The position numbers were made by a program, and so were the translations under genes. The notes beneath the pieces were generated by a model, which was not told the DNA's origin, searched no databases, and was given only the letters and a program-made list of their open reading frames with translations. 56,395 bases of DNA, taken from positions 1 to 56,395 of IMG/VR virus record IMGVR_UViG_3300026037_000015; one strand, written 5' to 3'. Below are positions 1,693 to 56,167 of the stretch, piece by piece. How positions within the stretch are numbered: position 1 is the first letter of the stretch; every line of letters starts with the position of its first letter. This DNA comes from a virus. Its lineage: Duplodnaviria; Caudoviricetes.

Positions 1693-2517
1693 ATGGACCC
1701 CATCACGATCTCCCTGGTCCTCGCCGTCCTCCTCACCTCCGGAGACACCGCCAGCGCCGGTCGAGGCCACGTCTACGCAGGGCACGCCGTCCGCGCCTAC
1801 CGGCGCGGCCGGAAGGCCGAGTCCCTCAAGCAGCGTGAGGCCCGCCGCAAGGACCGGGCCAAGCGGCTACGCAAGACCCGCATCGGCCGCTACCGGCTGT
1901 GGGTCGAGGCAGCCGCCCGGTCCTGGTTGGTGTCCCGCAGGGCAGGCCTCAAAGCCGTCCGTACGGAGTGGCCCTCACGGCACGCCACCTACGCCGCGCG
2001 CCGGGAGGCAGCCGCCCACAGGAGGGCCCGCATCCGGGCCCGAGTCCAGGCCCTCAACACCCCGCGGGCCGACCCCGAGCCACCCACACCGGTTGAGGGC
2101 CCTCAACCCACACCGGATGAGGGCCCTCAACCCACACCGGATGAGGGCAGCACCCCAGACCCCGGAGGGGCCGGCCATGGCCCGGCCGACCCCCCCGGCG
2201 CACCACAAGCACAGACACCCCTACCCCCCAAGGAGACCGGCATGGCACAGCCCACACCCAACACCGAGGCGCATTCTCTCGGCGCCTGGATCAAGCAGTG
2301 GGAATCCCTGCTCGCGGCAGCGAACGCACTCACTGAATCCGGCGCCACGCACCTCAAACTCCACGGGGCAGCAATCGCCCCCGCATCCGACGTCATCGAC
2401 CACATGGAATCCGCGCTCAACACATTCCGCACGAACTTCGCGGGGCTCATCGAGGCCGCAGACCTCGCCCCCGAAGGCACCGGCCACATGACGGTCGCTC
2501 AGGCCAGGACGGAGTAA
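1693..2517 (+). CDS. membrane-anchored hypothetical protein with Arg-rich and Pro-rich linker (transfer module)
   Basis: N-terminal hydrophobic segment, PQPTPDEG repeats; possible internal start at 2242 (AAGGAG RBS). Confidence 0.7.
   Translation: MDPITISLVLAVLLTSGDTASAGRGHVYAGHAVRAYRRGRKAESLKQREARRKDRAKRLRKTRIGRYRLWVEAAARSWLVSRRAGLKAVRTEWPSRHATYAARREAAAHRRARIRARVQALNTPRADPEPPTPVEGPQPTPDEGPQPTPDEGSTPDPGGAGHGPADPPGAPQAQTPLPPKETGMAQPTPNTEAHSLGAWIKQWESLLAAANALTESGATHLKLHGAAIAPASDVIDHMESALNTFRTNFAGLIEAADLAPEGTGHMTVAQARTE
2091..2148. repeat. 24-bp tandem repeat containing the palindrome TGAGGGCCCTCA
   Basis: GGTTGAGGGCCCTCAACC (2091-2108) is a perfect 18-bp palindrome; the unit recurs with a 24-bp period. 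Confidence 0.75.
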
Positions 2518-2521
2518 GGAC

Positions 2522-4624
2522 ATGGCGAGGGCCAAGACGTACCGGCTGCCTACCCAGCCGCCGCGCGGTGCTGGCGGCGGGCCAATCGCCTTGGCCCTCG
2601 CCACCCGCCGGGTCACCCGCAGGGCCCGAGGCAAGGACCAGCCCGTCGTCCCCGTGTGGCAGCCCGACGGCCGCGCGGTAATGGTCCCCATCTCCCAGCC
2701 GGCCAGGACCGAGGAGGAAGGCGACCAGCTCTACCGGCGCCGTCGTGTCGTCGTCGTCCTGCCCGCCGCGATCATCCTTGCCTGCCTGCGGGTCCTCCTC
2801 GACCTGGTCCCGCCGGGGGACACCCTGACCTACCTCTCCCTGGCCACCGGAGTCTCCGGAGCCATCATCTGGAGGCGTACCTCTCGCGCCGCGCTGACCG
2901 TCCTCGACTGGACCGTCGGCGACTGGTCCGGCCGCGCCGTCGGCCGCCTCGCGATCGGGGTCGCCCCGTCGCAGCCCGCACCGCAGGAGACGGCAGCCCA
3001 GCGGACCCGGAGGGTCCTCACCAGCATCAGGTGGCGCATATGCCTAAGACTCCGGGCCTCCCGCGCTGCGAGCTACGTAGCCCTCGGCTACTGCCTGACC
3101 TACGTCACCGGCCTCGCCGGGCCCTACACCATCGTCATCGCGGCTGCCGTCGCCCTCACCGCCCGCGCCTGGCGCTACCGGATCCGGCCGATGCCCCCCG
3201 AGCCCGAGCCAGCCGAGGAGACCCTCGAAGACATCTGGCACGGCGACCTGGCGCCCGCCATCGGCTGCGCCGGAGCCGTGATGCTCGCTGTCGAACCGCT
3301 CCGGACCGTCGACGGCTGGCGAGCCGACATCGAGCTGATCCGGGCCAAGCAGACCGTGTCGATGCTCAGGGCGGGCGCAGAGAAGATCGCCTCCGCCTAC
3401 GACGTCACCCCGTCCCAGGTCGGGATCGAGCAGCTCGGATCCGCGCGCCGTGCGCGCCTGACCATCGTCCAGAACTCGGTGCTGACCTCGGGCAAGGTCA
3501 CCACGGGGCTGGGGCTCGACCTGGAGACCGGGGTCGCCGATCTGTCCACACTTATCGACGGGTCGAGAGCCGGCTGGCAGTGGTACGACCCGGAATACGG
3601 GACGTACATGGGCTGGGTCTTTGGGTCGACCGGCTCAGGCAAGTCCAAGACCCTCGACGCGCTCCTGTCCTCGATCATGGCCTCCGGGATCGCCGTCCTC
3701 GACCTGGTCGACCTCAAGGGCGGGTCCTCCCTGCCCGAGTGGAAGGCCGTCGCTTACCGGTACGGCACCGACCTGCCGAGCGCGCTCGCCGGGATCGAAC
3801 GGGCGATCGCGGTCCACGAGGCCCGGTCCCGGTGGCTCGACGAGCACATGATGCGCCAGCGCACCCCAGCCCCCGACTGGCCGCTGTACCTGCTCGTGAT
3901 CGAAGAATTCGCCCACCTGCGGGAGATCAGGGGAGCGATCGCCCGGGCGGAGAGGATCGTCACCCAGGGCAGGGCAACCGCGGTCGCCCTGGTCGTCGCG
4001 ACCCAGGCCTCCGACCTCGCCGGAGCGTTCAGCGGATCCAACGTGTTCCGGACCCAGCTCCAGGCCGGGAACGTCCTCGCGCTGCGCTCCGACGCGGGGG
4101 CTGCCCGGACCGGCCTCGGAGGCATGGCCGGCCAGATCGACCTCTCCGTCATCCCCGCCCGGCAGGGCGGCACCGGGTACCTCATCACCCCCTCCAGCCA
4201 GCGTCCGATCCTCGGCCGCGTCGACCACGTCCGGGACACTCAGGCCGTCGTCGACCGGTGCATTGCTGCCGTCCCCGGCCCGCTCATCGACCTGGCCGTC
4301 GCCCGCATCGAGGCCTCCTGGGAGGAACAGGCCAAGCAACAGCAGGCCGCTGGCTCCCTCGCAGACCAGGCCCTTGCCGAGGCCTCCGTCCTCCTCGACC
4401 GGGCCAACACGAACAGCCCCAGGTCCCCGGTCCGGGACAAGGTCCTCGCCTGGCTACGGGAGCACCCCGGGCCCCAGTCGGTCCGGGACATGGTCACCGC
4501 GGGACTCGGCAGCGACAAGGGGATCCGAGAGGCCAGGGACTCCCTCTGCAAGGACGGACTCGTCCAGCTCACACCGTCGGCCGGCCAGGGCTCCTGCCAG
4601 GCCGTCACCCAGGAGGCATCGTGA
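2522..4624 (+). CDS. FtsK/SpoIIIE-family DNA translocase, TraB-like
   Basis: N-terminal TM segments; Walker A GSTGSGKS; DLKGG; Walker B LLVIEEF; QGRATAV...VATQ; C-terminal winged-helix-like segment. Confidence 0.85.
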   Translation: MARAKTYRLPTQPPRGAGGGPIALALATRRVTRRARGKDQPVVPVWQPDGRAVMVPISQPARTEEEGDQLYRRRRVVVVLPAAIILACLRVLLDLVPPGDTLTYLSLATGVSGAIIWRRTSRAALTVLDWTVGDWSGRAVGRLAIGVAPSQPAPQETAAQRTRRVLTSIRWRICLRLRASRAASYVALGYCLTYVTGLAGPYTIVIAAAVALTARAWRYRIRPMPPEPEPAEETLEDIWHGDLAPAIGCAGAVMLAVEPLRTVDGWRADIELIRAKQTVSMLRAGAEKIASAYDVTPSQVGIEQLGSARRARLTIVQNSVLTSGKVTTGLGLDLETGVADLSTLIDGSRAGWQWYDPEYGTYMGWVFGSTGSGKSKTLDALLSSIMASGIAVLDLVDLKGGSSLPEWKAVAYRYGTDLPSALAGIERAIAVHEARSRWLDEHMMRQRTPAPDWPLYLLVIEEFAHLREIRGAIARAERIVTQGRATAVALVVATQASDLAGAFSGSNVFRTQLQAGNVLALRSDAGAARTGLGGMAGQIDLSVIPARQGGTGYLITPSSQRPILGRVDHVRDTQAVVDRCIAAVPGPLIDLAVARIEASWEEQAKQQQAAGSLADQALAEASVLLDRANTNSPRSPVRDKVLAWLREHPGPQSVRDMVTAGLGSDKGIREARDSLCKDGLVQLTPSAGQGSCQAVTQEAS

Positions 4625-5724
4625 CCGACCAGACCCCGCCCTCGACGGGCCCTGCCCCCGTGCCGGCCAAGGCGACCCTCAACCCGAGGGTCACCATCGG
4701 CATGAGGATCGCCGCCGCGTGCATCGCTGCCGTCATCGGAGTCATCGGCGCGGTCGGCTCCTACGAAGGCCTCCGGGCAGGAGTTGCCCCGTACAGCACC
4801 CCATGGTTCGCGATGATGTTCCCGCTCCTCGTCGACCTCCTGATCGTCGTTTCCAGCCTGGAGTTCGTCGCGGCCACCCGAGCCCACAGCCCGGGCCGCC
4901 ACGGGTGGCGCATGATCGCCCACACCGCGATCGCAGGGACGATCGCCCTCAACGCGATCGCCGCACTGCGGGACTACGGCCCGGCTGGCGTCACCTGGCA
5001 CGTCATCGCCCCGACCGTCTGGGCCGTCCTCATCGAGCAGTACGCCCGGAAGTTCCAGGGGGAGTGGAAGGCCGAGCACACGCCGGACGTGATGATCCCC
5101 GCGCGGCTGTGGCTGCGTCACCCCGTGGACTCCGCCCGGCTGTGGCTGCGCGCCGCCGAGCTCGGGGGCGCACACTCGACGATCTCGGCTGACCTCGGTG
5201 TGCAGCGAGCAGCGATCGCCGTCCTGCGCGACTCCCTGCCGATCATCGGCTCGGCCCGGATCCGCAGGCTCCTCATCCGCCAGGTCCGCGCCGGGTCGCT
5301 GTCTCCCCGGGCCGTCCTCGACGCTTGCGGTGTGCTCGACCCCAGCGCCAGCAACGTCCCCCAGGACATCCGCCGCCGTGCCCTGGTCTCCATCCTGCGG
5401 ACCCAGGCCATTCCCGCAGCACCAGCCCCCCGGCCAGTGCTGCCCGCTACGCAGCCTCTCGCTCTTGCACCAGGCTCGGTGCCAGCACCAGCCCGGCCGA
5501 GCCCGTCCCGGCCAGCACCGGCCCGCCTCGAGGTCTCGACCCCGGACCGGGACAGCGTCATCACCTCGCTCCGGCGGGAGATGGGGGAGACCGACACCTG
5601 GAGACCCGACTACGCCCGGCTCATGGCCACCACGGGCAAGAGCCACTCCTGGTGTGAAAAGGCCGTATCCGAGGCCCGTCGTCTCGGTCCGATAGCGCGC
5701 CTCCGTGCCGCTGAATCCTCATAG
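4621..5724 (+). CDS. DUF2637-like membrane protein (Spd-type spread protein)
   Basis: Four TM helices with SYEGL, FPLLVD and IALN motifs typical of actinomycete plasmid/AICE DUF2637 proteins; Pro-rich linker; C-terminal HTH-like end; GTGA coupling to the TraB-like gene. Confidence 0.75.
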   Translation: MTDQTPPSTGPAPVPAKATLNPRVTIGMRIAAACIAAVIGVIGAVGSYEGLRAGVAPYSTPWFAMMFPLLVDLLIVVSSLEFVAATRAHSPGRHGWRMIAHTAIAGTIALNAIAALRDYGPAGVTWHVIAPTVWAVLIEQYARKFQGEWKAEHTPDVMIPARLWLRHPVDSARLWLRAAELGGAHSTISADLGVQRAAIAVLRDSLPIIGSARIRRLLIRQVRAGSLSPRAVLDACGVLDPSASNVPQDIRRRALVSILRTQAIPAAPAPRPVLPATQPLALAPGSVPAPARPSPSRPAPARLEVSTPDRDSVITSLRREMGETDTWRPDYARLMATTGKSHSWCEKAVSEARRLGPIARLRAAESS

Positions 5725-5737
5725 GAAGGCACCACCC

Positions 5738-6031
5738 ATGAATCCCACGTTCGCGCTCATCCTGCTGCTCACCGTCGCCGGACTCTGGCTCCTGGTCCGG
5801 CTCATCGAGACCGGCAACCGCCAGCTCCAGGCCCTGGTCAACCTCAAGGCCGACGAGGAGCCGGAGGAGCCGGAGGGCTGGACCTGGGAGCAGCGGTACG
5901 AGGCCCGCAGGCGCCGGTCGGCTCCGGGCCCGGCCCGGTCCTCGTCCTGGCCGGCAGGGCTGCTCGAGGTCGAGGACGTCAACCAGGGCGAGGCCGTCTC
6001 TGGTGCCGACAACACCAGCGCGGGGGAGTGA
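5738..6031 (+). CDS. small membrane-anchored hypothetical protein
   Basis: AGGAAGG RBS; N-terminal TM. Confidence 0.6.
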   Translation: MNPTFALILLLTVAGLWLLVRLIETGNRQLQALVNLKADEEPEEPEGWTWEQRYEARRRRSAPGPARSSSWPAGLLEVEDVNQGEAVSGADNTSAGE

Positions 6032-6297
6032 CCCCGATGAACATCTCCGAGGCGAAGGACGTCGCCCTGCTCCTGGAGTGGGCCGCCGGGCTGGCCGAGC
6101 CCCCGGTCTCCTGGACCGAGACCGCGGCCGCCGCCGGGCGCCTGGCGCTTCGGGTGCACCGGGCTCTGGCTGCTGGCCCGGACCAGCACGAGGTCTACCA
6201 CGGGGTCTCCCGGGCCACGGTCACCCACGGGACCTGCGCTGACCCGTGGTGCAAGCTCTGCTCCGGGCACCTCGCGGGGAAGAGGATGACCCCGTGA
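6028..6297 (+). CDS. hypothetical protein (C-terminal CxxxxCxxC)
   Basis: Coupled ORF, coding-like codon usage. Confidence 0.6.
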   Translation: MTPMNISEAKDVALLLEWAAGLAEPPVSWTETAAAAGRLALRVHRALAAGPDQHEVYHGVSRATVTHGTCADPWCKLCSGHLAGKRMTP

Positions 6298-6557
6298 TCG
6301 GCTGCGGTTGCGGGCCCCAGCCGCCCTACGTCCAGGTCACCAGGAGGCAGGGCCCGGTGACCTGGGTCGGGCTGGAGCCCGGGGGAGAGCTGGGGGAGCA
6401 GTGGGCCTGCCCCGAATGCGGTCGCCGGTACGTCGTGCGCCGCGCGCCGTGGGCCAGGTCCCCAGCGAGGAGCGGCACCGGCAGCTACCCGCTGCGGGTG
6501 TGGGCCCCGCCCGGCCGGTTCCCGCGATTGCGGGACATCTGGGGGTGGAAGCGGTGA
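6294..6557 (+). CDS. small zinc-ribbon hypothetical protein
   Basis: CGC and CPECG motifs; GTGA overlaps at both ends. Confidence 0.55.
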   Translation: MIGCGCGPQPPYVQVTRRQGPVTWVGLEPGGELGEQWACPECGRRYVVRRAPWARSPARSGTGSYPLRVWAPPGRFPRLRDIWGWKR

Positions 6558-6877
6558 GCTACCAGCGGGCCGTGCGCCACAACGTCACGTGCCCGCGGTG
6601 CGGCCGCCGCGGGTACGTGACGACGGGCCCCTGCGGCACGTGGATTTTCTGTGCTGCGCACGAGGGGATCCACGTGACCTCCCGGGCCCTCGTGAGGTCC
6701 TCCGTGCGTCTGATCATCGCGTGCACGAGCACGGTCAGCGCGTGCACGCACGAGGAGCACGTCGACCGGCGGGACTGGATCGCGACGGCCCGGGAGCTGC
6801 ACCTGGCGGCGCTGGTCGAGACCCGTGCCGCGTTCGGTCTGGGCCCTGATCTGACCCCTCTCGCCAGCGACCGATAA
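6554..6877 (+). CDS. Cys/His-rich hypothetical protein
   Basis: CPRCG motif; the TAA stop lies within the dif-like site. Confidence 0.55.
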   Translation: MSYQRAVRHNVTCPRCGRRGYVTTGPCGTWIFCAAHEGIHVTSRALVRSSVRLIIACTSTVSACTHEEHVDRRDWIATARELHLAALVETRAAFGLGPDLTPLASDR

Positions 6878-6894
6878 TGTGCATTATGTCAAGT
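6867..6894 (+). other. dif: XerCD dif-like recombination site (candidate attP or dimer-resolution site)
   Basis: GCGACCGATAA-TGTGCA-TTATGTCAAGT has 11-6-11 architecture with inner ATAA/TTAT inverted repeat; 19/28 identical to E. coli dif (XerD arm 9/11); AT-rich island in a GC-rich genome. Confidence 0.85.
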
Positions 6895-7169
6895 AACGGA
6901 GTTTTGACCGCTATGGACCGTCTCCCCCGGCCCCGCCGACCGCTCCCTCCAGGTGCCCTCCGCCGCCGTCCTCGGCCCCTGCTGCGCGCGGTCGTCTACA
7001 CGACGGCCGAGCAGCCCCCCCGGCTCTCGGTGAACCGCTACCCGCGACACGACCGGCCCGGCCGCGTGGTGATCGGCATCGCGCTCCGGGTCGGCCACTG
7101 CCGACTGCTGTCCCTCGTATGGCGTCGGCCGTGAGCCGTCCCCCGAACCGCGACCCAGGAGGCACCAGC

Positions 7170-7613
7170 ATGACCTTGCTCCCCGACGAAGCCCGCCGGG
7201 TCCTCGCCGCGATCGACCTGACGGAACGAACCGGCGCGCACCAGTTCGCGCTGGGCTACGGCCACACCCGGGTCGCAGGCAAGCCCATCGGCACCTGGAC
7301 CGCGTCGGCCGTCTACCGGGGAGGGACGATCAGCGCCAGCGCCTACTCCCCGCACGACGCTGCCGAGCGGCTCGCGATCCGGCTACTGACTGGCGCGAAG
7401 TGCGCCGATTGCTCCAGTCTGGTGGCGCTAAGTAGTGACGGCGCGGTGGCCTACCCAGATGCGGAGATGGCAGACGGCACTCTCTGGACCCACGAAGAGC
7501 AGCTCCGAGCAGGGTTCTGTCGCTGGTACCTGGCCAACGGCCGGACCTGGACCCGAGGCTGCGAGGAGGAGCACCCAGATGACGCACACCACTCCCCCAC
7601 TCCCCCGGGGTGA
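7170..7613 (+). CDS. hypothetical protein with CxxC
   Basis: AGGAGG RBS. Confidence 0.7.
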   Translation: MTLLPDEARRVLAAIDLTERTGAHQFALGYGHTRVAGKPIGTWTASAVYRGGTISASAYSPHDAAERLAIRLLTGAKCADCSSLVALSSDGAVAYPDAEMADGTLWTHEEQLRAGFCRWYLANGRTWTRGCEEEHPDDAHHSPTPPG

Positions 7614-7746
7614 CACCGACGCCGTCCGGATCCTCGACGACGTCCAGATCCTCCTGGCCGAGGCCCTCGGCCCGGTACTGCCGGCCGAGACCTTCAACGA
7701 CCTCGCGGACGACCTCACCGGTCTCGTTCTCGCCCACCGGACCTGA
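7579..7746 (+). CDS. small hypothetical protein
   Basis: GAGGAGGAG RBS; coding-like codon usage. Confidence 0.55.
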   Translation: MTHTTPPLPRGDTDAVRILDDVQILLAEALGPVLPAETFNDLADDLTGLVLAHRT

Positions 7747-7749
7747 CCG

Positions 7750-8037
7750 GTGAGCGGCCCCAGCACCGTGATCCTCCTGAGCCTCGCCCTGGTCGTCAGC
7801 GTCGCGATCCTCACCGAACGACGCCGCGGCCGGTGGGCTGCCGCCCAATGGCTCTACCTGCGCCTCGGGTGGCTCTACCCAGGCGGGTTCGTGGCCGGGT
7901 CGACCGGGGAGGGCAGCATCCCCCCGGCAGCCTGGCAGGCCCTCGCCGCCGCCTACGCGGTGCCCTGGGTCGCAGCCTGGGCGCGTCTCGCGTGGCTCAC
8001 CTCACAGGCACCACCGGATACGCGGCACCCCGTATAG
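7750..8037 (+). CDS. small membrane protein
   Basis: Hydrophobic, Trp-rich. Confidence 0.55.
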   Translation: MSGPSTVILLSLALVVSVAILTERRRGRWAAAQWLYLRLGWLYPGGFVAGSTGEGSIPPAAWQALAAAYAVPWVAAWARLAWLTSQAPPDTRHPV

Positions 8038-8077
8038 TCGGCACGACGACACCCCATCCCCTACCCAGGGAGACCCG

Positions 8078-8458
8078 ATGACCCAGCCCACCGAGGCCCG
8101 TACCCCGCAGGTCGAGCTACAGACCTGGCTCAACGAGAACATGATCAGGCACTCGGCCGAGTGCGAAACGGCGATCGGCCGAGACATGTCCCGGATCATC
8201 AACAGCGGAAACCTCGACGTCGACCGGCTCCGGTCCCTGACCGACCGCCTCGACGCCGTCCAGGGCGAGGCAGGGGCCTACGAGCTGGCCCGTGACCACG
8301 TGACCGAGGACCCCGGCGTAGCCCTCGCGGCGGTCCGGCAGCGACTCGTCATGACCGCGATGGGCGTGACCGACTCCTCCTGGGCCAGGTCACGGTGCCT
8401 GGGCTTCCAGGCAGGGGCCCGCCGCGTGATGGAGGTCATCGACTCCCTCTCCTCCTGA
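8078..8458 (+). CDS. hypothetical protein
   Basis: GGGAG RBS; preceded by CCCCGTATAGT, the -10 motif shared with other early promoters. Confidence 0.7.
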   Translation: MTQPTEARTPQVELQTWLNENMIRHSAECETAIGRDMSRIINSGNLDVDRLRSLTDRLDAVQGEAGAYELARDHVTEDPGVALAAVRQRLVMTAMGVTDSSWARSRCLGFQAGARRVMEVIDSLSS

Positions 8459-8550
8459 CCTGCTGCCTGCCCCCAGAACCATCGGGCCCCCGCGCCGATC
8501 CCCTCCGGCCGGGGGCCCGATGCCGTCCCCGCCCGGGGCGAGCATGAGCC

Positions 8551-9105
8551 ATGACCTCCATCACCCACCTCGGCTACCGCGAGGTCGCCCCAGGCGACCT
8601 GGCCGACTTCCCCGGGAACGCCACCATCCACGACGAGGAGGCCCTCGACGCCTCCGTCGGACGGTTCGGCCAGTTCCAGGCCCTGCTCGCCCGAGAGCTA
8701 CCCGACGGGACCCTCCAGCTCCTCGCCGGGCACGGCACCCGCGCTGCCCTGGTCCGTAACGAGGTGACCTCCACCAGGGTCGAGGTCATCCAGGTCGACG
8801 ACGAGACGGCCCTGGGCATCAACCTCGCAGCCAACGGCACCACCCGCCGCCGCGACTACGAGCCAGCGGCGCTCCTCGACCTCCTCGCCCAGGCCCGAGC
8901 TGCCGGAGGCCTCGGAGGCACCGGCTGGGACGACGCCGAACACGATCGGCTCCTGGCCCTGGTCGAGGCCCCCGCGCCTGCCCCGGAGCCGCAGCCCCCG
9001 GCCGAGTTCCCGTCCTACGACGACGAGACCATCGAGACGTCCTTCAAATGCCCGTCCTGCGGCTACCAGTGGTCGGGAAACCCAGGCTCCAGCACCGATG
9101 AGTAG
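8551..9105 (+). CDS. ParB/Sulfiredoxin-like protein with C-terminal zinc ribbon, first gene of the DNA modification operon
   Basis: PGNATIH...SVGRFGQ...LLAGHGT..A ParB-N motifs; C-terminal FKCPSCGYQW. Confidence 0.75.
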   Translation: MTSITHLGYREVAPGDLADFPGNATIHDEEALDASVGRFGQFQALLARELPDGTLQLLAGHGTRAALVRNEVTSTRVEVIQVDDETALGINLAANGTTRRRDYEPAALLDLLAQARAAGGLGGTGWDDAEHDRLLALVEAPAPAPEPQPPAEFPSYDDETIETSFKCPSCGYQWSGNPGSSTDE

Positions 9106-10324
9106 ACCTGCCTACCGGGTCCCGACCATGGTCGAGATCAGGGCCCTGCCCCCGAACGGCCTCCGGGTCATCTCCACGTTCGCGGGCGCCGGAGGATCCA
9201 GCACCGGCTACCGCATGGCCGGCTACCAGGTCATCTGGGCCAACGAGTTCGTCCCGGCTGCCGCAGCCACCTACCGGGCGAACGCCTCCCCCGGCACCAT
9301 CGTCGACACCACCGACATCCGCGAGGTCACCCCCGAGTCGATCCTGGCCGCTACCGGCCTGGCCGTCGGCGACCTGGACATCTTCGACGGCTCCCCGCCC
9401 TGCTCGGGGTTCTCCACCGTCGGGATCAGGGAGGCCGGCTGGGGAGTGACGAAGGCCTACTCGTCCACCCGGCAGCGCGTCGATGACCTGTTCTTCGAAT
9501 ACACCCGGCTCCTGCGCGGGCTCCAACCCCGAGTGTTCGTCGCCGAGAACGTCTCCGGCCTGGTCCGCGGGGTGGCCAAGGGCTACTTCAAACGGATCAT
9601 GGCCGAGATGAAGGCCTGCGGGTACCGCGTCGAGGCACGGCTCCTCGACGCCCAATGGCTGGGGGTGCCCCAGGCCCGGAAGCGGATCATCTTCATCGGT
9701 GTCCGCCGCGACCTTGGCCGGCTACCGGTTCACCCCGGTCCCCTGTCGCACCGGTATGCCGTCCGGGACGTCCTGCCCGCCCTTGAGCTCCAAGGCGGCG
9801 GACCGTGCCCGTTCGGTGAGAGCAGCTACCAGCGGACGGACCGGCCGTCCCCGACGATCGGGTCCTCGCTGACGTTCGGCAACGGCAGGTCTCCCTCTAG
9901 CGTGGTCGTCGAGACCCCGCCGACCTACGTCCATGACACCGGAGGCGAGTTCGGTCAAGGCGACGGCTCGGACCGGCCGTCACCGACGATCGTCGCGACA
10001 CCGGCATCCCTGAACCACTACCGGGTCGCAGCAGCCGACGGCGAGCCCGGACCGGTCTGGCGCGAGCACCTCCCCTACTGCCCGGAGACCGGTAAGGCCC
10101 TGATCCTGCGACCGACCGCGTCGATGAGGTACACCCCGCCGCCCGGGAGGATCATGCGTCGCCTCACGATCCCCGAGCTGCGACTCCTCAGTTCGTTCCC
10201 CGCCGACTTCGCCCTCACCGGCAGCTACGAGGAACGGTGGGAGCGCTGCGGGCGGGCCGTCCCCCCGCTGATGATGCGCGCGATCGCGTCGACCATCGCC
10301 CGGGACGTCCTGTGTGCGGGCTGA
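9098..10324 (+). CDS. DNA cytosine-C5 methyltransferase-family enzyme, probable carboxymethyltransferase
   Basis: Motif I FAGAGG, IV GSPPCSGFS, VI AENV, VIII PQARKR, IX RRLTIPEL; motif X is GRAVPP instead of GNAV. Confidence 0.9.
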   Translation: MSRPAYRVPTMVEIRALPPNGLRVISTFAGAGGSSTGYRMAGYQVIWANEFVPAAAATYRANASPGTIVDTTDIREVTPESILAATGLAVGDLDIFDGSPPCSGFSTVGIREAGWGVTKAYSSTRQRVDDLFFEYTRLLRGLQPRVFVAENVSGLVRGVAKGYFKRIMAEMKACGYRVEARLLDAQWLGVPQARKRIIFIGVRRDLGRLPVHPGPLSHRYAVRDVLPALELQGGGPCPFGESSYQRTDRPSPTIGSSLTFGNGRSPSSVVVETPPTYVHDTGGEFGQGDGSDRPSPTIVATPASLNHYRVAAADGEPGPVWREHLPYCPETGKALILRPTASMRYTPPPGRIMRRLTIPELRLLSSFPADFALTGSYEERWERCGRAVPPLMMRAIASTIARDVLCAG

Positions 10325-11754
10325 TCGGAGGAGCGCTGCCCCTGCCCTCCGTCATCCGGGGCCTCGACGCGATCGCCCACCGCGGGCCCGACGACCAGGG
10401 CGCGGCCGAGTCCGGGGCCTTCGCCCTCGGCCATACCCGCCTCGCCGTCCAGGACGTCACGTCCGCCAGCGCCCAGCCGTGGCCGGCCAGCGACGGCAGC
10501 CTGGTCACGTACAACGGGGAGGCCTGGAGACCGGACGCTCTCCGTGCGCTGCTCCCCGAGCGCACCTGGTCGACGACCGGGGACACCGAGGTCGTCGCCG
10601 AGCTGCTCGCCGCGCACGGCACCGAGGCGCTGCCCCTCCTCGACCGGGCGATGTTCGCCCTCGCCTGGGTCGACCGGGAGGGGCTCCTCCACCTCGCCCG
10701 CGATCGCTACGGCGAGGTCCCCCTCCACGTCGGCCGGCTACCTGGCTCACGCATCGCCTATGCCTCCGAGGTCGCTGCGCTCCTCCAGCTCGGGGCCCAC
10801 CCGGCGACCATCCAGTGGCTCCTCCCTGGACACGTCATGACCGTCCAGCAGGACGGCCGTACGGCGACCGTCTCCAGGTGGGCAGCCCCCGAGGTCCTGA
10901 CCCCGTCCCAGGACGGCCCGCGGGCCGCTGCTGCCGTCGTCCGGCACCACCTCATGGAGGGAGTCACCGACCGCCTCACCGGAGACGTCCCGATCGCTGT
11001 CCTCGTCTCCGGAGGCCTTGACTCTTCCCTGGTCCTCGGGATCATCCGCACGATGCGACCCGACCTCGAGGTCGGCGCCTACACGGCCGTCCACAACCCG
11101 AGGTCCCTCGACCTCGCCCACGCCAGGGCCGTCTGCGGGTCCTGGGGCATCCCCCTGCGTGAAGTCCCCGTACCGGCGCCGACGGCTGCTGACCTGGCTC
11201 GGACGGTCCGCGCCGTCGAACAGCCGCATAAGGCCCAGGTCGAGATCGGCTGGGCCTGTCTGCACCTCGCCCGGGCGATCCGGCGGGACGGGTACAAGGT
11301 GGTGCTCTCCGGTGAGGGCAGCGACGAGCTGTGGGCGTCCTACGGGAGCCCCCGGTCGATCATGGTCCATCACGGGATCAAGACGCAGGGCTGGCACCAG
11401 TACCGGGCCTCCACCTTCACCGGCCAGCACAGGAAGAACTTCGCCAGGACGAACAAGGTGTTCATGAGGCACGGGATCGAGGCCAGGCTCCCGTTCCTCG
11501 ACCCCGGCCTCGTCGGCTACGCCCTGACCCTCCCCGAGGTGACCGTCACCAGAGCTGCCGGAGGCCGTACCCACACGAAAGCGGTTCTCGCCGCAGCGGC
11601 CGCGGGCCTCGTCCCGGAGACCAGCGTGTGGCGGGCCAAGGTCGCCTTCCAGGTCGGGGCAGGCCTCGACCTGGCGGTCAAGCGTGCCGTCCCTGATCCG
11701 CGCAGGCTCTACGCGGCCGAGTTCCGGACTGCCTACGGAGGAGTCAAGCCATGA
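10312..11754 (+). CDS. asparagine synthetase B-like glutamine amidotransferase/ATP-dependent amide ligase
   Basis: GTG start then N-terminal nucleophile C-G-L; HRGPD, HTRL, YNGE, DTEV, ARDRYG, PP-loop SGGLDSS, LSGEGSDEL, EARLPFLD. Confidence 0.9.
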   Translation: MCGLIGGALPLPSVIRGLDAIAHRGPDDQGAAESGAFALGHTRLAVQDVTSASAQPWPASDGSLVTYNGEAWRPDALRALLPERTWSTTGDTEVVAELLAAHGTEALPLLDRAMFALAWVDREGLLHLARDRYGEVPLHVGRLPGSRIAYASEVAALLQLGAHPATIQWLLPGHVMTVQQDGRTATVSRWAAPEVLTPSQDGPRAAAAVVRHHLMEGVTDRLTGDVPIAVLVSGGLDSSLVLGIIRTMRPDLEVGAYTAVHNPRSLDLAHARAVCGSWGIPLREVPVPAPTAADLARTVRAVEQPHKAQVEIGWACLHLARAIRRDGYKVVLSGEGSDELWASYGSPRSIMVHHGIKTQGWHQYRASTFTGQHRKNFARTNKVFMRHGIEARLPFLDPGLVGYALTLPEVTVTRAAGGRTHTKAVLAAAAAGLVPETSVWRAKVAFQVGAGLDLAVKRAVPDPRRLYAAEFRTAYGGVKP

Positions 11755-12476
11755 CGGACATCGAGGACCGGGAGCAGCCCGGAGCGTGGACGTTCGCGCA
11801 GTTCGGGGCGCAGTTCGACAGCCACGTCATCGCCCACCTCCCGGTCTATGAGGACGTGCAGGCGATCGTTGCGGGCGTCTCCTCGTACACGCTGCCGGAC
11901 CGGGGAGTCATCGCCGACCTCGGGGCCAGCACCGGCCGGACGATCGCCCAGCTCGCGGAGCAGCACCCCGAACGACGCCTGGTCGCCCACCTCTACGACG
12001 CCGATCCGTCGATGCTCCAGGAGGCCGAGCGGCGCCTGGTCGACCACGGGAACGTGACCGGCTACCTCCATGCCGGAGACCTCACCGAGGGCGACACGTG
12101 GAGCCACCAGCGGGCCGATCTGACCCTCGCCCTGTGGCTCCTCCAGTTCATCCACCCCCGGCACCGCGTCGAGGTCCTCAAGCGGGCACGGGACCGGGCT
12201 GCCGACAACGGAGTGATCCTCCTCGGGGCGAAGGCCCGGCACCTGGACTCCAGGTGGCAGGAGATCGCAGATGGGGCCCTCGCCGACTACAAGGCCGCCG
12301 CGGGGGTGACCCCGCAGGAGATCGTCGCGAAGGCGCGCTCGCTGCGCGGCGTGCTGATCCCCGATACCGGGGAGTCGCTGGCCGGCCACCTGGTGACGGC
12401 CGGGTGGCACGCCCCGACGGTCATCCACCGCTGGCACGTCTGGACGCTGATCGGCGCATGGGCCTCCCCACGGTAG
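11751..12476 (+). CDS. CmoA-like carboxy-S-adenosylmethionine synthase / class I SAM enzyme
   Basis: WTF...FDSHV..HLP.Y, DLGASTG, LQF and YK..AG.T..EI..K..SL.GV match the CmoA family pattern (WTFD..VA.VF.DMI.RSVPGY, DLGCS.G, TLQF, FK..NGYS..EI.QKR..LENV). Confidence 0.8.
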   Translation: MTDIEDREQPGAWTFAQFGAQFDSHVIAHLPVYEDVQAIVAGVSSYTLPDRGVIADLGASTGRTIAQLAEQHPERRLVAHLYDADPSMLQEAERRLVDHGNVTGYLHAGDLTEGDTWSHQRADLTLALWLLQFIHPRHRVEVLKRARDRAADNGVILLGAKARHLDSRWQEIADGALADYKAAAGVTPQEIVAKARSLRGVLIPDTGESLAGHLVTAGWHAPTVIHRWHVWTLIGAWASPR

Positions 12477-12496
12477 GAGGCTCATGCCTGGGGGGC

Positions 12497-12724
12497 TCAC
12501 CGGGTGGCGAGTGGCTCCCGCCACCGGTAGCAGCCGGTGGTCTGGACGAGCCACCGGTGGAAGGTCACGACCCCGGAGCGGGCTGTTGCCAGCTCCTCCC
12601 GGGTGCCGCCGTAGGCGACGTCGAGGGCCAGCTCGGCAGCGAGGCGCGCTGCCCGGTAGTCCTCGACGAGCTGCTGATGTGCTGGCCAGCACCCCCGGTG
12701 TCGGGGGCTACACCCGGTTGGCAC
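12497..12724 (-). CDS. small hypothetical protein
   Basis: Downstream of and co-oriented with 12731-13051. Confidence 0.55.
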   Translation of the reverse strand: MPTGCSPRHRGCWPAHQQLVEDYRAARLAAELALDVAYGGTREELATARSGVVTFHRWLVQTTGCYRWREPLATR

Positions 12725-12730
12725 GGCAGA

Positions 12731-13051
12731 TCACCATCCCTTCATCTCGCGGTAGGTGTCGAGCGCCGTCGCGGCAGCGACGAATCCCGTGTGGGTGACG
12801 GCAGCCGTAGTGCGCTGGTCGTCGTTGTCCCAGCGCAGGACGAGGGCGATCACGCGACCGGAGCGGGCGCCGATGCGGATCCGGCCGAACCCGCTGTCGG
12901 GGCCGACCCCGCTGAGGACGACGTCGACGGATCCCCGGTAGGCCGGGCGGACCTCGGGGCGAAGGCCTGCCCGCTCGGCCCGCTGGATGAGGCTCCGGGC
13001 TGCGGAGGTCATGGGGGCGGGGCTGCTGCTGGGGGAGGTCGTCGTCGCCAT
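12731..13051 (-). CDS. hypothetical protein, probably leaderless
   Basis: ATG lies 6 nt after a TATAGT -10 box. Confidence 0.7.
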   Translation of the reverse strand: MATTTSPSSSPAPMTSAARSLIQRAERAGLRPEVRPAYRGSVDVVLSGVGPDSGFGRIRIGARSGRVIALVLRWDNDDQRTTAAVTHTGFVAAATALDTYREMKGW

Positions 13052-13086
13052 GGCTCCACTATACGGGCTAGCGCGTTATAGTCCAG
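13052..13086 (-). promoter_or_regulatory. sigma-70-type promoter with operator-like spacer, leaderless transcript
   Basis: Minus strand CTGGAC-TATAACGCGCTAGCCCG-TATAGT-GGAGCC-ATG. Confidence 0.7.
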
Positions 13087-13120
13087 TCCGTAGTGCAGCG
13101 AAGGGTAGTCCGGCATCCGC

Positions 13121-13149
13121 TGGACACTAGACGCACTACCCCGTATATT
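13121..13149 (+). promoter_or_regulatory. sigma-70-type promoter for the DUF932 operon
   Basis: TGGACA-17 nt (ends CCCCG)-TATATT. Confidence 0.7.
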
Positions 13150-13196
13150 CATCGGGGTAAGGCACCGCAGGGCACCACGACAACAGGAGGACCCCC

Positions 13197-14246
13197 GTGT
13201 CCAGAGAATCCGACCGCTGGCTCAACCGCATGACCCTCATCGGCAACACCGACAAGCGCGGCACCGCCTGGCACTACCGGGCCGTCCTCCAGGGCCCCGA
13301 GAGCAACCACTACGCCGGGCCCATCCCCATCGAGGACGTCCGCCGCCGCCTCATCGGCTGGCAGCTCCAGCAGGGAACCATCTCCTCCTGCGTCATCACC
13401 GAGGACGGCGCCGACGTCTACGAGGACCCCAACCGTCTCTCCGTCATCCGCCCGCGCGGCGCGTTCGGCCCCGACGACCAGGGCGAGATCCTCGGCACCT
13501 TCCGCCGCGGGTACCGCATCCACCAGTACGACGAGTGGCTCCTCGGAGGCCTCGCCCAGATCCTCGACCAGTCCGCTGGCGAGCTGGTCATCGAGTCGGC
13601 CGGACTCCTCCGGCGCGGCGCCGTCGCCTGGGTCCAGATCGCCATGCCCGAGACCATGAACGTCGAGGGCGTCGAGTTCCGCACCCACATCACTGCCGCC
13701 ACCTCGGCTGACGGCACCCTCGCCACCGGATTCGTCGCAGGCAACCAGGAGGTCGTCTGCGACAACACCCTCCACGCCGCCTGGGTCGAGCGCGACGCCC
13801 GCAGCATCAAGATCCGCCACACCTCCGGCTCCCTCACCCAGATCCACCGGGTGCGCGACGCACTGGAGCTGGTCTACGCCGAGGCCGACGCCTTCTCGGC
13901 CGAGATCCGGGAGCTGGTCGCGACCACCGTCACCGACCGCCAATGGGCAGCTTTCCTCGACGCGCACACCCCCGTGCCGTCCAAGCCGGGCGCCGGGCGC
14001 ACCGTCGCCGAGAAGCACCGCTCCGAACTCTCCGCGCTCTGGGCAACCGACGAGCGGGTCTCCCCGTGGACCGGCACCGCCTGGGGCGTCCTCCAGGCGG
14101 TCAACACCCACCGGCACCACCTCAGCCGGGTCTCCGGCGGCGACGCCAAGCGCGGTGAGCGCAACATGGCCAACGTCGTCAAGGGCATCACCGCCCGCGA
14201 GGACCTGGCCGCGATCCGGCAGCTCCAGGGCGTCCTCTCGGCCTGA
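13197..14246 (+). CDS. DUF932 / phage-plasmid TIGR03299-like protein
   Basis: AGGAGG RBS; AWH, ESAGLLRRG, TSADGT, VVCDNT and GTAWG..QAV motifs. Confidence 0.85.
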   Translation: MSRESDRWLNRMTLIGNTDKRGTAWHYRAVLQGPESNHYAGPIPIEDVRRRLIGWQLQQGTISSCVITEDGADVYEDPNRLSVIRPRGAFGPDDQGEILGTFRRGYRIHQYDEWLLGGLAQILDQSAGELVIESAGLLRRGAVAWVQIAMPETMNVEGVEFRTHITAATSADGTLATGFVAGNQEVVCDNTLHAAWVERDARSIKIRHTSGSLTQIHRVRDALELVYAEADAFSAEIRELVATTVTDRQWAAFLDAHTPVPSKPGAGRTVAEKHRSELSALWATDERVSPWTGTAWGVLQAVNTHRHHLSRVSGGDAKRGERNMANVVKGITAREDLAAIRQLQGVLSA

Positions 14247-14257
14247 GCCGCCCACCT

Positions 14258-14287
14258 GCCCCGCCCCCCGTGGCCCGGGGGCGGGGC
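14258..14287 (+). terminator. GC-rich hairpin after the DUF932 gene
   Basis: GCCCCGCCCCC...GGGGGCGGGGC inverted repeat. Confidence 0.5.
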
Positions 14288-14322
14288 TCCCCCCGCAGCA
14301 ACGACCCCCCAGGAGCCCCCCC

Positions 14323-15044: not shown

Positions 15045-15056
15045 CCTGCCCCCACC

Positions 15057-15325: not shown

Positions 15326-15374
15326 CCCCGCAGCACCGACGCCCTCCCAGCCTCCACCCGACAGGAGACCCACC

Positions 15375-15608: not shown

Positions 15609-15625
15609 CCGCCCCCTAGACACGT

Positions 15626-47400: not shown

Positions 47401-47820
47401 TCACGTACGGGGGCTGTCCCGTCTGCGGCGGATCTCGTCCACGATGCGGTAGATCTCCCTCCGACCGCCGGAGACTGCCTCGTCGAGGGCATCATGGTCG
47501 ATCTGGTCGAGGAATCCTGGCCGGAAGTACAGGTAGACGCCCGAGCCGTCGACGGCGAACGGGACGGCGCCCTCGATGCGGGGGGGCTCGGTGGGGTGGG
47601 TGGACCAGTCCCCGGTCTCCGGGTCCTGGTGGAAGGCGACTCGGAGGACTTCACCGAGGCGGGCGATGTCGCTGCTGGAGGGTTGCGTGCTGCCCCGTTC
47701 CCAGTTGCCGATCGTCTTGAGGTAGCGGCCGACTGCGCTGGCGAGGTCCTCCTGCCGGAGGCCGCGCTGCCGTCGCTGCTCGCGGATCAGTTTCCCCAGG
47801 TTGCTGGCCATGGGCGGCAT
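47401..47820 (-). CDS. XRE-family HTH immunity repressor
   Basis: LGKLIREQRRQRGLRQEDLA..VG...TIGNWERG..QP; divergent from the Cro-like gene. Confidence 0.85.
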   Translation of the reverse strand: MPPMASNLGKLIREQRRQRGLRQEDLASAVGRYLKTIGNWERGSTQPSSSDIARLGEVLRVAFHQDPETGDWSTHPTEPPRIEGAVPFAVDGSGVYLYFRPGFLDQIDHDALDEAVSGGRREIYRIVDEIRRRRDSPRT

Positions 47821-47950: not shown

Positions 47951-48295
47951 ATGAACAGCCCATCCCTTACCGGCGCGGCGGCAACCGCCGCGCCCGTCAC
48001 CGGGCCCAAGATCAGGGCGCTCCGCGAGGCCATCGGTATGGACCAGGCAACCCTGGCCGCCGCCGTCGGGATCGGAGCCTCCCGGATGTGCCGGATCGAA
48101 CGCGAGGAACGCCCCATCACCCCCGACCTGCGACGGAGGATCCTCACCGCGCTGGGCACCGGCCTCGCCGCCGAATCACAGCGGCTGGAGAGCATCGCCC
48201 AGGACGTCCTCGCCCTGGTCCGCGACACGCAGCAGCTCGGTGCCGCCCTCGCGCACGAGCTGGGCCTACCGGCGGCGAACGGCCGCCCCCACTGA
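47951..48295 (+). CDS. Cro-like XRE HTH regulator
   Basis: IRALREAIGMDQATLAAAVGIGASRMCRIE. Confidence 0.8.
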   Translation: MNSPSLTGAAATAAPVTGPKIRALREAIGMDQATLAAAVGIGASRMCRIEREERPITPDLRRRILTALGTGLAAESQRLESIAQDVLALVRDTQQLGAALAHELGLPAANGRPH

Positions 48296-48401: not shown

Positions 48402-48830
48402 ATGCACCTGCTCCTCCCCTGCGAGGAACGGCCACCTCAGGCCGAACCCGTCGAGGTCCTCCTCGACACGATCGAGGACGCCGACTACCTCGCGCGGCTC
48501 CGGCTCACCGACACCACCGGGGTCATCTCCCGTCTCTTCCACGTCCTCGGGCACGACCCGCTGCTGCGCCGCGCGGCCATGGACCTGCTCACCCACCAGG
48601 CCGAGACGGCCGAGGCCCGGCTCATCCGCGGGCAGGCCCTCGCCATCCTGGCCGCCAGCACGCTGGTCGCCGAAACGTTCGCGGCCGACCTGACCCCCGA
48701 GCAGGTCACCGACCTCACCGGGGAGATGGCGATCCTCCCGCCGGAGCGCTGCGCTGCCCCCGGGTGCGGGGCCAACGCCGTTGCCGACGGCCTGTGCGCC
48801 AGCGACGCTCACGCGGCTGGTGTCCTGTGA
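48402..48830 (+). CDS. hypothetical protein with C-terminal CxxxxC...CxxD/H
   Basis: AGGAAGGA RBS. Confidence 0.65.
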   Translation: MHLLLPCEERPPQAEPVEVLLDTIEDADYLARLRLTDTTGVISRLFHVLGHDPLLRRAAMDLLTHQAETAEARLIRGQALAILAASTLVAETFAADLTPEQVTDLTGEMAILPPERCAAPGCGANAVADGLCASDAHAAGVL

Positions 48831-49915
48831 GCGCCGCGACCGTCACCCAGCTCCCGGCCGTGGCACCGGCCCCGCTGGAGCTGCCCGCGACCGAGCCCGT
48901 CCCCGCCAGCTCCCCCCTGTGGGCCTGGGCCCGGCGCCCGTTCGCCCAGGACGAGATCGAGCTACTCCCCAAGCCGCTGACCAAGGAATACAAGAACGGG
49001 GAGTGCAACCGCCCGGACCGGGACGGCATCCAGTGCGGCGGGTGGCACGCCATGCCGTGCATCCACCTGATGTACGTCGGGCACGCCGGTCTGACGATGC
49101 GGCTCTACGAGGTCGACCCGTTCTGGTCGTGGGAGCCGATGGCCTTCAACATCGACCCGGACCTCCTCAAGCTGGCCATCTCCTCCGGAAGCACGGAGAT
49201 GGTCGACCGGGTCATGCGCAACGGGACGCCCCGGATCGAGCAGGGCTCCATGTGGATCCGGATGACCCTGCTCGGGCAGATGTTCGTCGGGGTCGGTGAC
49301 GCCGGAGGCAAGTCCGGGCCCAACGCCGTCAAGGAGATCATCGGCGATGCGCTGCGCAACGCCGCGATGAGGGCAGGCATCGGCACCTACCTGTGGTCCA
49401 AGTCCGAGCGCGCGATGTCGATGAAGGACCGCGGGGAGGGACTCGACCCGGCCCAGGCCCAAGCCGAGGAAGAGGCCTCCCGCAGGCGCGGGCAGCAGGC
49501 CGAGGCCCGGCAGCAGCGTCGCCAGCAGACACGCTCCTCGGGGCAGCAGCGGCCTCCCGCGACGGCACCGGCACCGGCTCAGGCACCAGCCCCGACACCG
49601 GAGCCCGTGCGCACGGCCACCGCGATCAGCGTCCTCGCGGCGGCCGAGACCGACCCCGAGAAGATCCGCGCTACGTGGCGCGAGGCACGGGCCCGGGACC
49701 TCAACGAGATCGACGTCACCCAGGTCCTCCTCGGCCAGCACCGCGACTGGCTCGACGTCGCCGCGCTCGTCGGCCTGATCGTCCCCGGACGCCCGGTCAC
49801 CCTCGGTGGGTGGCTGGCTGCCTGCGCCAAGCACGTCGATGGCCAGGGCGGACTCACCATCTCGGCCGCGGCACGGGCGGCCGCGACCAGCACCAGACAG
49901 GAGATCCAGTCATGA
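48827..49915 (+). CDS. Rad52/Sak-like single-strand annealing protein
   Basis: YVGHA..T.RL.EVDP.WSWEP, WIRMT..G, KEIIGDALRNAAMR.GIG..LW.K. Confidence 0.75.
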   Translation: MSAATVTQLPAVAPAPLELPATEPVPASSPLWAWARRPFAQDEIELLPKPLTKEYKNGECNRPDRDGIQCGGWHAMPCIHLMYVGHAGLTMRLYEVDPFWSWEPMAFNIDPDLLKLAISSGSTEMVDRVMRNGTPRIEQGSMWIRMTLLGQMFVGVGDAGGKSGPNAVKEIIGDALRNAAMRAGIGTYLWSKSERAMSMKDRGEGLDPAQAQAEEEASRRRGQQAEARQQRRQQTRSSGQQRPPATAPAPAQAPAPTPEPVRTATAISVLAAAETDPEKIRATWREARARDLNEIDVTQVLLGQHRDWLDVAALVGLIVPGRPVTLGGWLAACAKHVDGQGGLTISAAARAAATSTRQEIQS

Positions 49916-55900: not shown

Positions 55901-56167
55901 ATGTGTAATGCTGTCTCGCGTGACACACCAGACACGGGAGGCACGGTGACTGTGGTGACGGCCGACGAATCCCCTCCCCTCCTCACCGTCCGAGAAGCAC
56001 ACGCGATACTCGCCCCCCTCAACGTCTCATTGCGCACGACGTACCGACTCGCGTCATCCGGCCAACTCGGGCCCTACCGGTCCCTCATGGGGCTGCGCGC
56101 GATTCGGCTGCGGAAAGACGCAGTCGAGGCATACCTGAGGGCTCAGCAGCCCGGAGGCCAGCGATGA
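55901..56167 (+). CDS. excisionase-like HTH DNA-binding protein (true start possibly GTG near 55946)
   Basis: LLTVREA..IL....VS.RT.YRL..SGQL...IRL.K.AVEAYL. Confidence 0.8.
   Translation: MCNAVSRDTPDTGGTVTVVTADESPPLLTVREAHAILAPLNVSLRTTYRLASSGQLGPYRSLMGLRAIRLRKDAVEAYLRAQQPGGQR

Follow-up and report, generated by a model that had tools for sequence, protein, structure and literature searches.

What is a bacterial chromosomal dif doing on the genome of a tailed phage in which no recombinase gene can be recognised? The window analysed here is an entire IMG/VR virus record of 56,395 bp (GC ~72%), in which the initial annotation had pointed to a dif-like XerCD site. The first 127 bases of the record equal its last 127, so that it assembles as a circle, although circularly permuted virion DNA would produce an identical overlap. 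Four features define the locus itself:

6867..6894, + strand: canonical 28-bp dif GCGACCGATAATGTGCATTATGTCAAGT, that is, GCGACCGATAA-TGTGCA-TTATGTCAAGT
6554..6877, + strand: upstream ORF of 107 aa, no family (frame GC3 0.88-0.97 up to ~6800)
6913..7134, + strand: downstream ORF of 73 aa, Arg/Pro-rich (frame GC3 0.85-0.97)
6851..6878, + strand: sigma-70-like promoter match (-35 CTGACC, -10 GATAAT; 9/12 positions, consensus match only)

The 28-mer has the 11-6-11 layout first described for it and is unique in the window. An XerC arm at 6867-6877 (GCGACCGATAA) and an XerD arm at 6884-6894 (TTATGTCAAGT) enclose the centre TGTGCA at 6878-6883, and the inner ATAA and TTAT form a dyad around these 6 nt. 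The site itself is the one match in the window at <=3 mismatches, and none of 100 dinucleotide shuffles held any match. A weighted dif consensus scan scored it 34/34, against 22 for the runner-up in the window and 20-26 for the best position in each of 20 shuffles; no second, degenerate Xer site in the phage scored above the shuffles. The 19/28 identity to E. coli dif reported earlier is well below the agreement with the bacterial sites described below.

The site straddles a gene end. It lies in an AT-rich patch within the 72% GC genome, and the overlap with a stop codon noted at the outset is real: the TAA at 6875-6877 ends the upstream ORF inside the XerC arm, which supplies that ORF's last codons as well as its stop. 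The upstream product matched nothing in PHROG or Pfam; the downstream product had no Pfam match, and its Atlas model, of low confidence, gave no usable match. The most likely start of the downstream ORF is ATG 6913, behind GGAG at 6898-6901, so that the gap between the two ORFs, 35 bp long, contains the centre and the XerD arm of the dif. No polarity switch in GC skew occurs at the site, the cumulative skew declining steadily across it; a place at the terminus, or where polarity switches, is a defining feature of chromosomal dif but not of plasmid sites. KOPS-like octamers are skewed in the phage (one octamer 16 versus 0, for example), which is uninformative on polarity because the genes all lie on one strand.

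Judged by its letters, the site is a consensus-grade actinobacterial chromosomal dif, a stronger result than the dif-like character originally claimed. Its 21-nt core (ATAA+TGTGCA+TTATGTCAAGT) is present exactly, and once, in each of 22 species-representative genomes. Sixteen are actinobacterial by record title (three Cryptosporangium, Subtercola, Demequina, Nakamurella, Micromonospora, Mycetocola, Aeromicrobium, a Pseudonocardiaceae MAG, a Propionibacteriales MAG and five further MAGs); the others comprise four betaproteobacterial genomes, one Myxococcota MAG and one genome without a taxon. At 15 of the 22 loci identity extends over 24 nt, CCGATAA-TGTGCA-TTATGTCAAGT (24/28 to the phage site), and the Mycetocola site reaches 26/28. 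The four betaproteobacterial loci carry GCGCATAA left of the core instead of CCGATAA. The arm left of the core thus tracks host taxonomy and behaves as an XerC arm should. The Frankia alni dif, as printed in PMC3025954, agrees with the phage site at 22/28 positions, the whole XerD arm included.

A wider sample of the Cryptosporangium class gave the same picture. Matches at <=3 mismatches were found in 55 of 201 genomes, each single-copy, while a reversed control gave 0/201; two of the 55 matching genomes are flagged as unpublished, and without them the tally is 53/199. Counted from the listing of these sites, 35 of 55 differ from the phage site solely within the central hexamer and all 55 keep CGATAA. 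Searching actinobacterial chromosomes near the GC-skew terminus, as had been suggested, turned up not only matches but also a skew switch at an identical site. In one Cryptosporangium genome (G001), the only one tested for skew, mean GC skew over ten 15-kb pieces on each side was +0.027 to the left and -0.016 to the right (MWU p=0.001), a sign change that is the pattern of a terminus dif. Two Cryptosporangium genomes also hold a second exact copy of the XerD-arm 12-mer; we rejected it as a dif, as it has no XerC arm and sits at an orthologous locus.

Phage and host share the site and nothing around it. DNA similarity between the phage and the 22 host loci ends with the dif core, the longest match being 28 nt (Pseudonocardiaceae MAG), and no flanking gene is common to the phage and any of these loci. 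That similarity stops at the core argues for a selected site and against a host fragment dragged in by chance. Another proposal would make the 28-mer no more than a promoter or operator, AT-rich and serving the genes downstream, whose resemblance to dif is accidental, the GATAAT of its inner XerC arm coinciding with the -10 of the sigma-70-like match. A promoter does not need 24/24 identity to the chromosomal difs of 15 genomes, and the palindrome of the site occurs nowhere else in the phage; this proposal is almost certainly wrong. The 28-mer is very probably a working Xer substrate, and we infer that it is bound by XerC and XerD.

The phage has no recognisable enzyme with which to use such a site. 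Six-frame searches with PF00589, PF00239 and PF07508 gave no match at E<=10, whereas the same profiles found matches in control genomes, and no integrase appeared among the ORFs scanned with PHROGs, Pfam and NCBIfam (nearly all ORFs >=90 aa). ParA-type AAA_31 gave no match in six frames at E<=1. The absence of tyrosine and serine recombinases and of ParA, first noted by inspection, thus holds up under profile searches. No partition gene or plasmid-replication initiator (Rep) was recognised among the unknown ORFs scanned, and with ParA, partition and initiator genes all missing from these searches a stable plasmid state is hypothetical. Lacking an integrase and carrying a host-type dif, the phage probably borrows the host's XerC/XerD, whether for untangling its own circles or for insertion into the chromosome, and we considered both.

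Gene content fits a tailed phage with a lysogeny-type switch. A GC3-based gene call gave ~82 ORFs, almost all on the + strand, and the 56,395-bp window contains no tRNA genes. PHROG and Pfam scans of the ORFs named two WhiB-like genes, a DnaB-type helicase and the following:

20458-22266: large terminase, virion module (PHROG/Pfam)
25486-28137: portal, virion module (PHROG/Pfam)
30389-32053: major capsid, virion module (PHROG/Pfam)
36667-38904: tape measure, virion module (PHROG/Pfam)
44158-45318: endolysin (PHROG/Pfam)
47401..47811, - strand: XRE-type HTH, repressor-like (CI-like), HTH_31 E 1.6e-10, divergent from the Cro-like gene
47951..48295, + strand: Cro-like XRE HTH, first gene of a long rightward set
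48827..49915, + strand: single-strand annealing protein (SSAP), phrog_3290, E 1.1e-36
55901..56167, + strand: HTH_17 (excisionase/MerR-type) small DNA-binding protein, 88 aa, E 2.3e-9 and 2.5e-8, above the Pfam cut-off
8551..9105, + strand: ParB-like protein, 184 aa, adjoining a DNA methyltransferase (PHROG)

The repressor/Cro pair and the excisionase-like gene of the initial annotation were both recovered, the former as divergent XRE HTH genes and the latter as the HTH_17 ORF. With this CI/Cro-like switch and the HTH_17 gene, the phage appears to be a temperate-looking siphovirus of a high-GC actinomycete. We rejected the ParB-like protein as a partition system: at 184 aa it falls short of a partition ParB, and neither Pfam nor NCBIfam gave a match. 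A 24-nt tandem repeat at 2082-2153 was likewise set aside as a candidate set of iterons: its period equals 8 codons inside an open Pro-rich ORF and it is probably coding.

The site closes a block of plasmid-like genes. Two of them lie upstream:

2522..4624, + strand: FtsK/SpoIIIE/TraB-family dsDNA translocase-like protein, 700 aa (PHROG FtsK/SpoIIIE-like, E 1.9e-9), 2.2 kb upstream of dif
4621..5724, + strand: DUF2637 protein, 367 aa (Pfam PF10935, E 8.6e-11)

A profile built from 11 homologues of the translocase matches the FtsK motor 2IUU (E 3e-19) as well as conjugative coupling proteins. FtsK_gamma was found in the phage translocase neither by Pfam in six frames nor by profile against PDB sequences. 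By tblastn the translocase matched 32 actinomycete plasmid records (Streptomyces, Micromonospora and related) and none of 50,697 phage records. One Streptomyces plasmid pairs a homologue of the translocase with a DUF2637 gene 3 kb away, much as the phage does. Canonical sites of this kind occur on actinobacterial plasmids too, namely Gordonia pGOR1 (GAGCCGATAA-TGTACC-TTATGTCAAGT), a Frondihabitans plasmid and Rhodococcus ruber pmega_2.

Such a setting raises the idea of a functionless passenger, acquired together with the plasmid-like block or through an earlier Xer event involving a plasmid or chromosome, and merely tolerated since. The locus has the look of a mosaic joint, with plasmid-like genes upstream and, downstream, a ParB-like/methyltransferase/asparagine-synthase-like block. 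The methyltransferase/amidotransferase part is the phage's sole distant DNA match (68% identical to Streptomyces phage TurkishDelight), no close DNA relative being present among 50,697 phage records. The site is a singleton, absent from 47 structural relatives and from 40 other viral loci with FtsK-like genes, and actinobacterial plasmids such as those above have sites of this kind. Yet the genome is 72% GC, a background in which an AT-rich 28-mer would be expected to erode, and the site has kept all 24 of its informative positions; it brought along no flank of host or plasmid origin; and on a circle that replicates, a site bound by XerCD would hardly be neutral. We regard a mere passenger as decidedly unlikely.

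The reading we favour is that the host's Xer machinery resolves multimers of a circular phage. The 28-mer would be an actinobacterial dif and a substrate of host XerC/XerD, carried on the circular form of an integrase-less siphovirus. Multimers may arise by homologous recombination, for which the SSAP would be a source. Host XerCD, activated by FtsK as at any dif with a 6-bp centre, would then act on phage dimers or multimers, where recombination between two copies of the site would yield monomers and so stabilise an episomal circular replicon (plasmid-like or in a carrier state). A host dif with the same TGTGCA centre would permit reversible co-integration at the chromosomal dif as a by-product. 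The phage, having no recombinase of its own, would in effect have outsourced resolution to its host. We assign this reading, co-integration included as a possibility, a tentative probability of about 0.4.

Evidence from the site and from other replicons bears on multimer resolution in both directions. The canonical 6-bp centre and two full arms speak for it, as do the like sites on actinobacterial plasmids, the plasmid-like block upstream, the circular assembly and the unbroken site in the source run. Bare dif on a plasmid, in E. coli work, recombines without resolution selectivity, which counts against it. In PMC2731167, independence from accessory factors is associated with centres of 6 bp, and co-resident replicons are described as having differing centres, which avoids fusion. 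According to PMC8026635, most circular plasmid prophages encode one or two recombinases related to XerCD, which serve to resolve dimers.

The main rival is lysogeny of the IMEX type, in which host XerCD would integrate the phage circle at a chromosomal dif with a TGTGCA centre, HTH_17 or another phage factor biasing the direction. The phage pairs a CI/Cro switch and an excisionase-type HTH_17 with no integrase, ParA or recognisable Rep, and its centre and both arms equal natural chromosomal difs, with 28 contiguous nucleotides identical to the dif region of the Pseudonocardiaceae MAG. This route is established, in the work reported by PMC6744903, PMC9966536 and PMC12715192, for filamentous and non-tailed phages.

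Our searches for an integrated form came back empty. None of the 22 host dif loci lies beside phage genes, and all 55 dif-bearing class genomes are single-site, so that the prophages flanked by two dif copies that integration predicts were not found. No homologue of the capsid protein is present in the five genomes holding an identical dif. Capsid homologues occur in 6 of 401 class genomes at 26-36% identity; in the one case with both on one contig (G130), the capsid gene lies 1.1 Mb from the dif. The best genome-borne capsid relatives in a 5.8-billion-protein collection are Pseudonocardia proteins at 38-41% identity, and that capsid search revealed no close prophage on record.

Sequencing data likewise show an intact site. 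An exact 32-mer spanning the XerD arm and right flank, searched as a junction probe, had no match in metagenome contigs. An independent assembly of the source run, from a wetland sample, spans the site (record 3, 2119-16297, 0 differences, depth ~41). The second run, X2, yielded scattered identical pieces at a depth <1.5, none over 6004-7337. Neither run's contigs showed a joint or loose end at 6878-6883, contigs being prone to drop rare forms such as a minority integrated one.

The character of the site also weighs against IMEX. Phage IMEX sites, as described in PMC3025954, have degenerate XerD arms and longer, variable centres, unlike the site here. A canonical site would, moreover, place a prophage between two fully active difs. 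Cassettes flanked by dif, and the gonococcal island, are excised by FtsK-XerCD when the flanking difs are active. We consider IMEX-type lysogeny somewhat unlikely. A bolder version, which we think unlikely, would make this the first tailed dsDNA phage to lysogenise as an IMEX, using a chromosomal dif whose centre is TGTGCA in an actinomycete resembling Pseudonocardiaceae or Cryptosporangium. Xer timing would be set by HTH_17 and/or by the FtsK/TraB-like, membrane-anchored translocase that the phage encodes 2 kb away. If this were so, the phage could enter and leave through a canonical site without depending on cell division.

Of the two lifestyles first proposed, insertion at the chromosomal dif and a plasmid prophage that uses Xer, the shared premises stand: a canonical Xer/dif site, no integrase or ParA, and a temperate-looking switch. 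What each would have left behind did not appear, whether an integrated relative, a hybrid junction, a second site, or a partition or plasmid-replication gene. Multimer resolution of a circular phage by host XerCD remains the reading we prefer.

Relatives of the phage share its virion genes and not its early region. A 22-sequence capsid alignment found 272 related viral stretches, from which 80 loci were kept; whole records were searched for 47 of these (those ~17 kb or more), 23 of the 47 being at least 90% complete. No credible dif was found in the 47 relatives, all matches having 3 mismatches, like the reversed control. A tyrosine recombinase was present in two of the 47 (none of the 23 near-complete records) and a serine recombinase in none. 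Seven relatives compared in full have only terminase-to-tail genes in common with the phage (28-64% identity) and no early genes. They consequently say little about its lysogeny module, and the missing dif is weak evidence. The early half of the phage is close to unique, a singleton in viral, phage-record and metagenome searches. Single-protein scans of viral contigs with the translocase, capsid and helicase confirmed no relative, and the translocase found none in metagenome contigs.

Several observations run counter to multimer resolution: no ParA, partition or replication initiator gene was found, the site is not conserved in relatives, it has no skew switch, and the early region of the phage is a singleton.

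Canonical dif sites turn up in a handful of other viruses. The exact 21-mer had no match in viral contigs, the 34-mer gave one weak match against phage records, and the 592 kb that make up 40 other viral loci with FtsK-like genes contained no site at <=2 mismatches. By comparison, nine viral records match a strict dif pattern of actinobacterial type, against ~0.5 expected by chance (a rough estimate), all nine carriers being unrelated to this phage. Three are proviruses with a dif 1.3 kb from the record end (G406-G408), which we rejected as prophages at dif: each encodes a 586-aa serine recombinase as well as a tyrosine recombinase, and with recombinases of their own the dif is probably flank. 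The remaining six, none of them a provirus, have neither PF00589 nor CbiA/ParA. Among these six are a 124-kb terminal-repeat phage of virulent type whose dif lies 1-3 kb from rIIA/rIIB, a jumbo-size element that accounts for two records, and a GC-rich phage fragment of 44.5 kb in which dif occupies a divergent intergenic gap. Canonical dif in unrelated phages without recombinases, the rIIA/rIIB phage included, indicates that dif alone does not imply lysogeny.

The rIIA/rIIB case is also awkward for multimer resolution, since neither lysogeny nor plasmid maintenance is expected of a virulent-type phage.

These carriers suggest a role for dif in lytic growth, in which the site might titrate XerCD, halt FtsK on phage DNA or assist in processing replication intermediates, a function this phage would have in common with other dif-carrying virulent phages. 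The excess of the strict pattern over chance, the six non-proviral carriers and the 124-kb phage all point this way, as does the report in PMC2800217 that FtsK halts at XerCD-dif. We know of no mechanism for such a role, the numbers are tiny, and no relationship links the carriers among themselves or with this phage. On balance we judge a lytic function very improbable here, and hold to resolution of phage multimers by host XerCD.

If the site works, a tailed phage can dispense with its own integrase or resolvase by way of a universally conserved host system, and 28 bp are enough to alter its lifestyle options. The site also offers a clue to the host, an actinomycete with a circular chromosome and XerCD. 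The wider question is why phages keep dif at all, given that its unrelated, recombinase-less carriers include one of virulent type.

Comparison with known systems sets the phage among several relatives in kind. Its site resembles the chromosomal dif/XerCD of Actinomycetota, such as the Frankia alni site shown in PMC3025954, in the 11-6-11 layout, an XerD arm identical at 11/11 positions and the inner XerC arm CCGATAA, its centre being a natural variant. It differs in lying on a 56-kb phage genome instead of at a replication terminus, in showing no GC-skew switch, and in an XerC arm that doubles as a coding end. The dif-like sites of the actinobacterial plasmids (pGOR1, Frondihabitans, pmega_2), together with plasmid Xer sites such as cer, psi and pdif, are alike in being host-type sites on extrachromosomal elements without a matching recombinase. 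The actinobacterial plasmid sites have the same arms, and the phage site likewise sits beside plasmid-type translocase and DUF2637 genes; the phage differs as a tailed carrier with a full virion module, in which no partition or replication genes were found. Relative to cer and psi, as PMC2731167 presents them, it has a 6-bp centre and no evident accessory region.

Elements that exploit host Xer form the closest functional parallel. The sources consulted describe plasmids, genomic islands and both filamentous and non-tailed phages as exploiting Xer, and the literature searched contained no tailed phage or actinophage with a host dif. With the IMEX elements reported there (CTXphi, VGJphi, TLCphi, the gonococcal island and non-tailed vibriophages) the phage shares an integrase-less mobile genome and a dif-like site. 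It departs from them as a tailed dsDNA actinophage whose site is canonical rather than degenerate, and for which neither an integrated form nor a flanking pair of sites was found.

Plasmid prophages complete the comparison. P1 is a circular plasmid prophage with its own resolution system, Cre-lox. If the phage does exist as a circular replicon, it would share with the Bacillus plasmid prophages, reported in PMC8026635 to carry XerC/D-like genes, the need to have multimers turned into monomers by a tyrosine recombinase at a single short site. Here the plasmid state is one we infer, and the recombinase would be the host's, not the phage's. With a functional-looking host Xer site on a recombinase-less tailed phage, this genome may represent a further form of Xer-exploiting mobile DNA.

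A host dif is also carried by a phage whose sequence reads as that of a virulent-type virus. This IMG/VR record (G410, the source of locus L033) is a complete terminal-repeat phage of 123.8 kb and about 47-52% GC, and its canonical dif, CACGCCGATAA-TACACA-TTATGTCAAGT at 36655-36676, matches the strict dif pattern. The rIIA/rIIB genes lie 1-3 kb away (locus L059:12512-15576), and no tyrosine recombinase, serine recombinase or ParA was found in the 123.8 kb. Two further dif carriers are an element common to two records of 297 kb and 150 kb (G458 and G459; loci L032 and L036; 61% GC), which share the same dif and flanks, and a 44.5-kb phage fragment (G409, locus L037; 68% GC) with an SU10-like portal, whose dif at 21586 lies inside a 2.1-kb divergent intergenic gap. 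Searches of all three records found neither PF00589 nor ParA.

The surroundings of the window's own dif place it at a mosaic joint, because the window's sole nucleotide-level link to any isolated phage is to genes directly downstream of the site, which share 68% DNA identity with genes 123-124 of TurkishDelight, a 93.6-kb Streptomyces phage. Three features of the window are considered here.

2082-2153: tandem repeat, 3 x 24 nt (ACCCACACCGGATGAGGGCCCTCA), within ORF 1693-2517
9100-10830: DNA methyltransferase and glutamine-amidotransferase/asparagine-synthase-like genes, matching TurkishDelight
47080-47159: two strong hairpins, with arms of 11 nt and 20 nt

The repeat is probably coding: its period equals 8 codons, and the reading frame is open, Pro-rich and directly upstream of the FtsK/SpoIIIE/TraB-like translocase gene. 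Each copy also contains a palindrome, and the repeat may have an iteron- or clt-like role. The hairpins occupy the stretch that separates a convergent peptidase-like gene from the repressor side; this is the region in which temperate actinophages usually carry int and attP. Six-frame searches of the window with PF00589, PF00239 and PF07508 found no integrase there.

Actinobacterial genomes contain partial sites as well. In Demequina sp. B12 (locus L008), the real dif is preceded, 427 bp upstream, by another site of the same orientation (7474-7496 and 7901-7923). This additional site has a perfect XerD arm (TTATGTCAAGT) but lacks an XerC arm, and may be a trace left by a small element that integrated through Xer. 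Two Cryptosporangium genomes carry the exact XerD-arm 12-mer at an orthologous locus (G001:C8:310353 and G002:C3:395833; L247 and L248), in neither case with an XerC arm beside it. By sequence, this 12-mer is a conserved XerD half-site.

Elsewhere dif lies close to a recombinase gene. In three related proviruses (G406, G407 and G408; loci L031, L034, L035 and L062-L067) and a 450-kb Frondihabitans plasmid (L069:3687-5026), a canonical dif is separated by about 190-200 bp from the start of a tyrosine recombinase gene encoding about 373-406 aa. These pairs may constitute a mobile xer-plus-dif module. By analogy, their arrangement resembles that of single-recombinase systems, in which the gene adjoins its own site.
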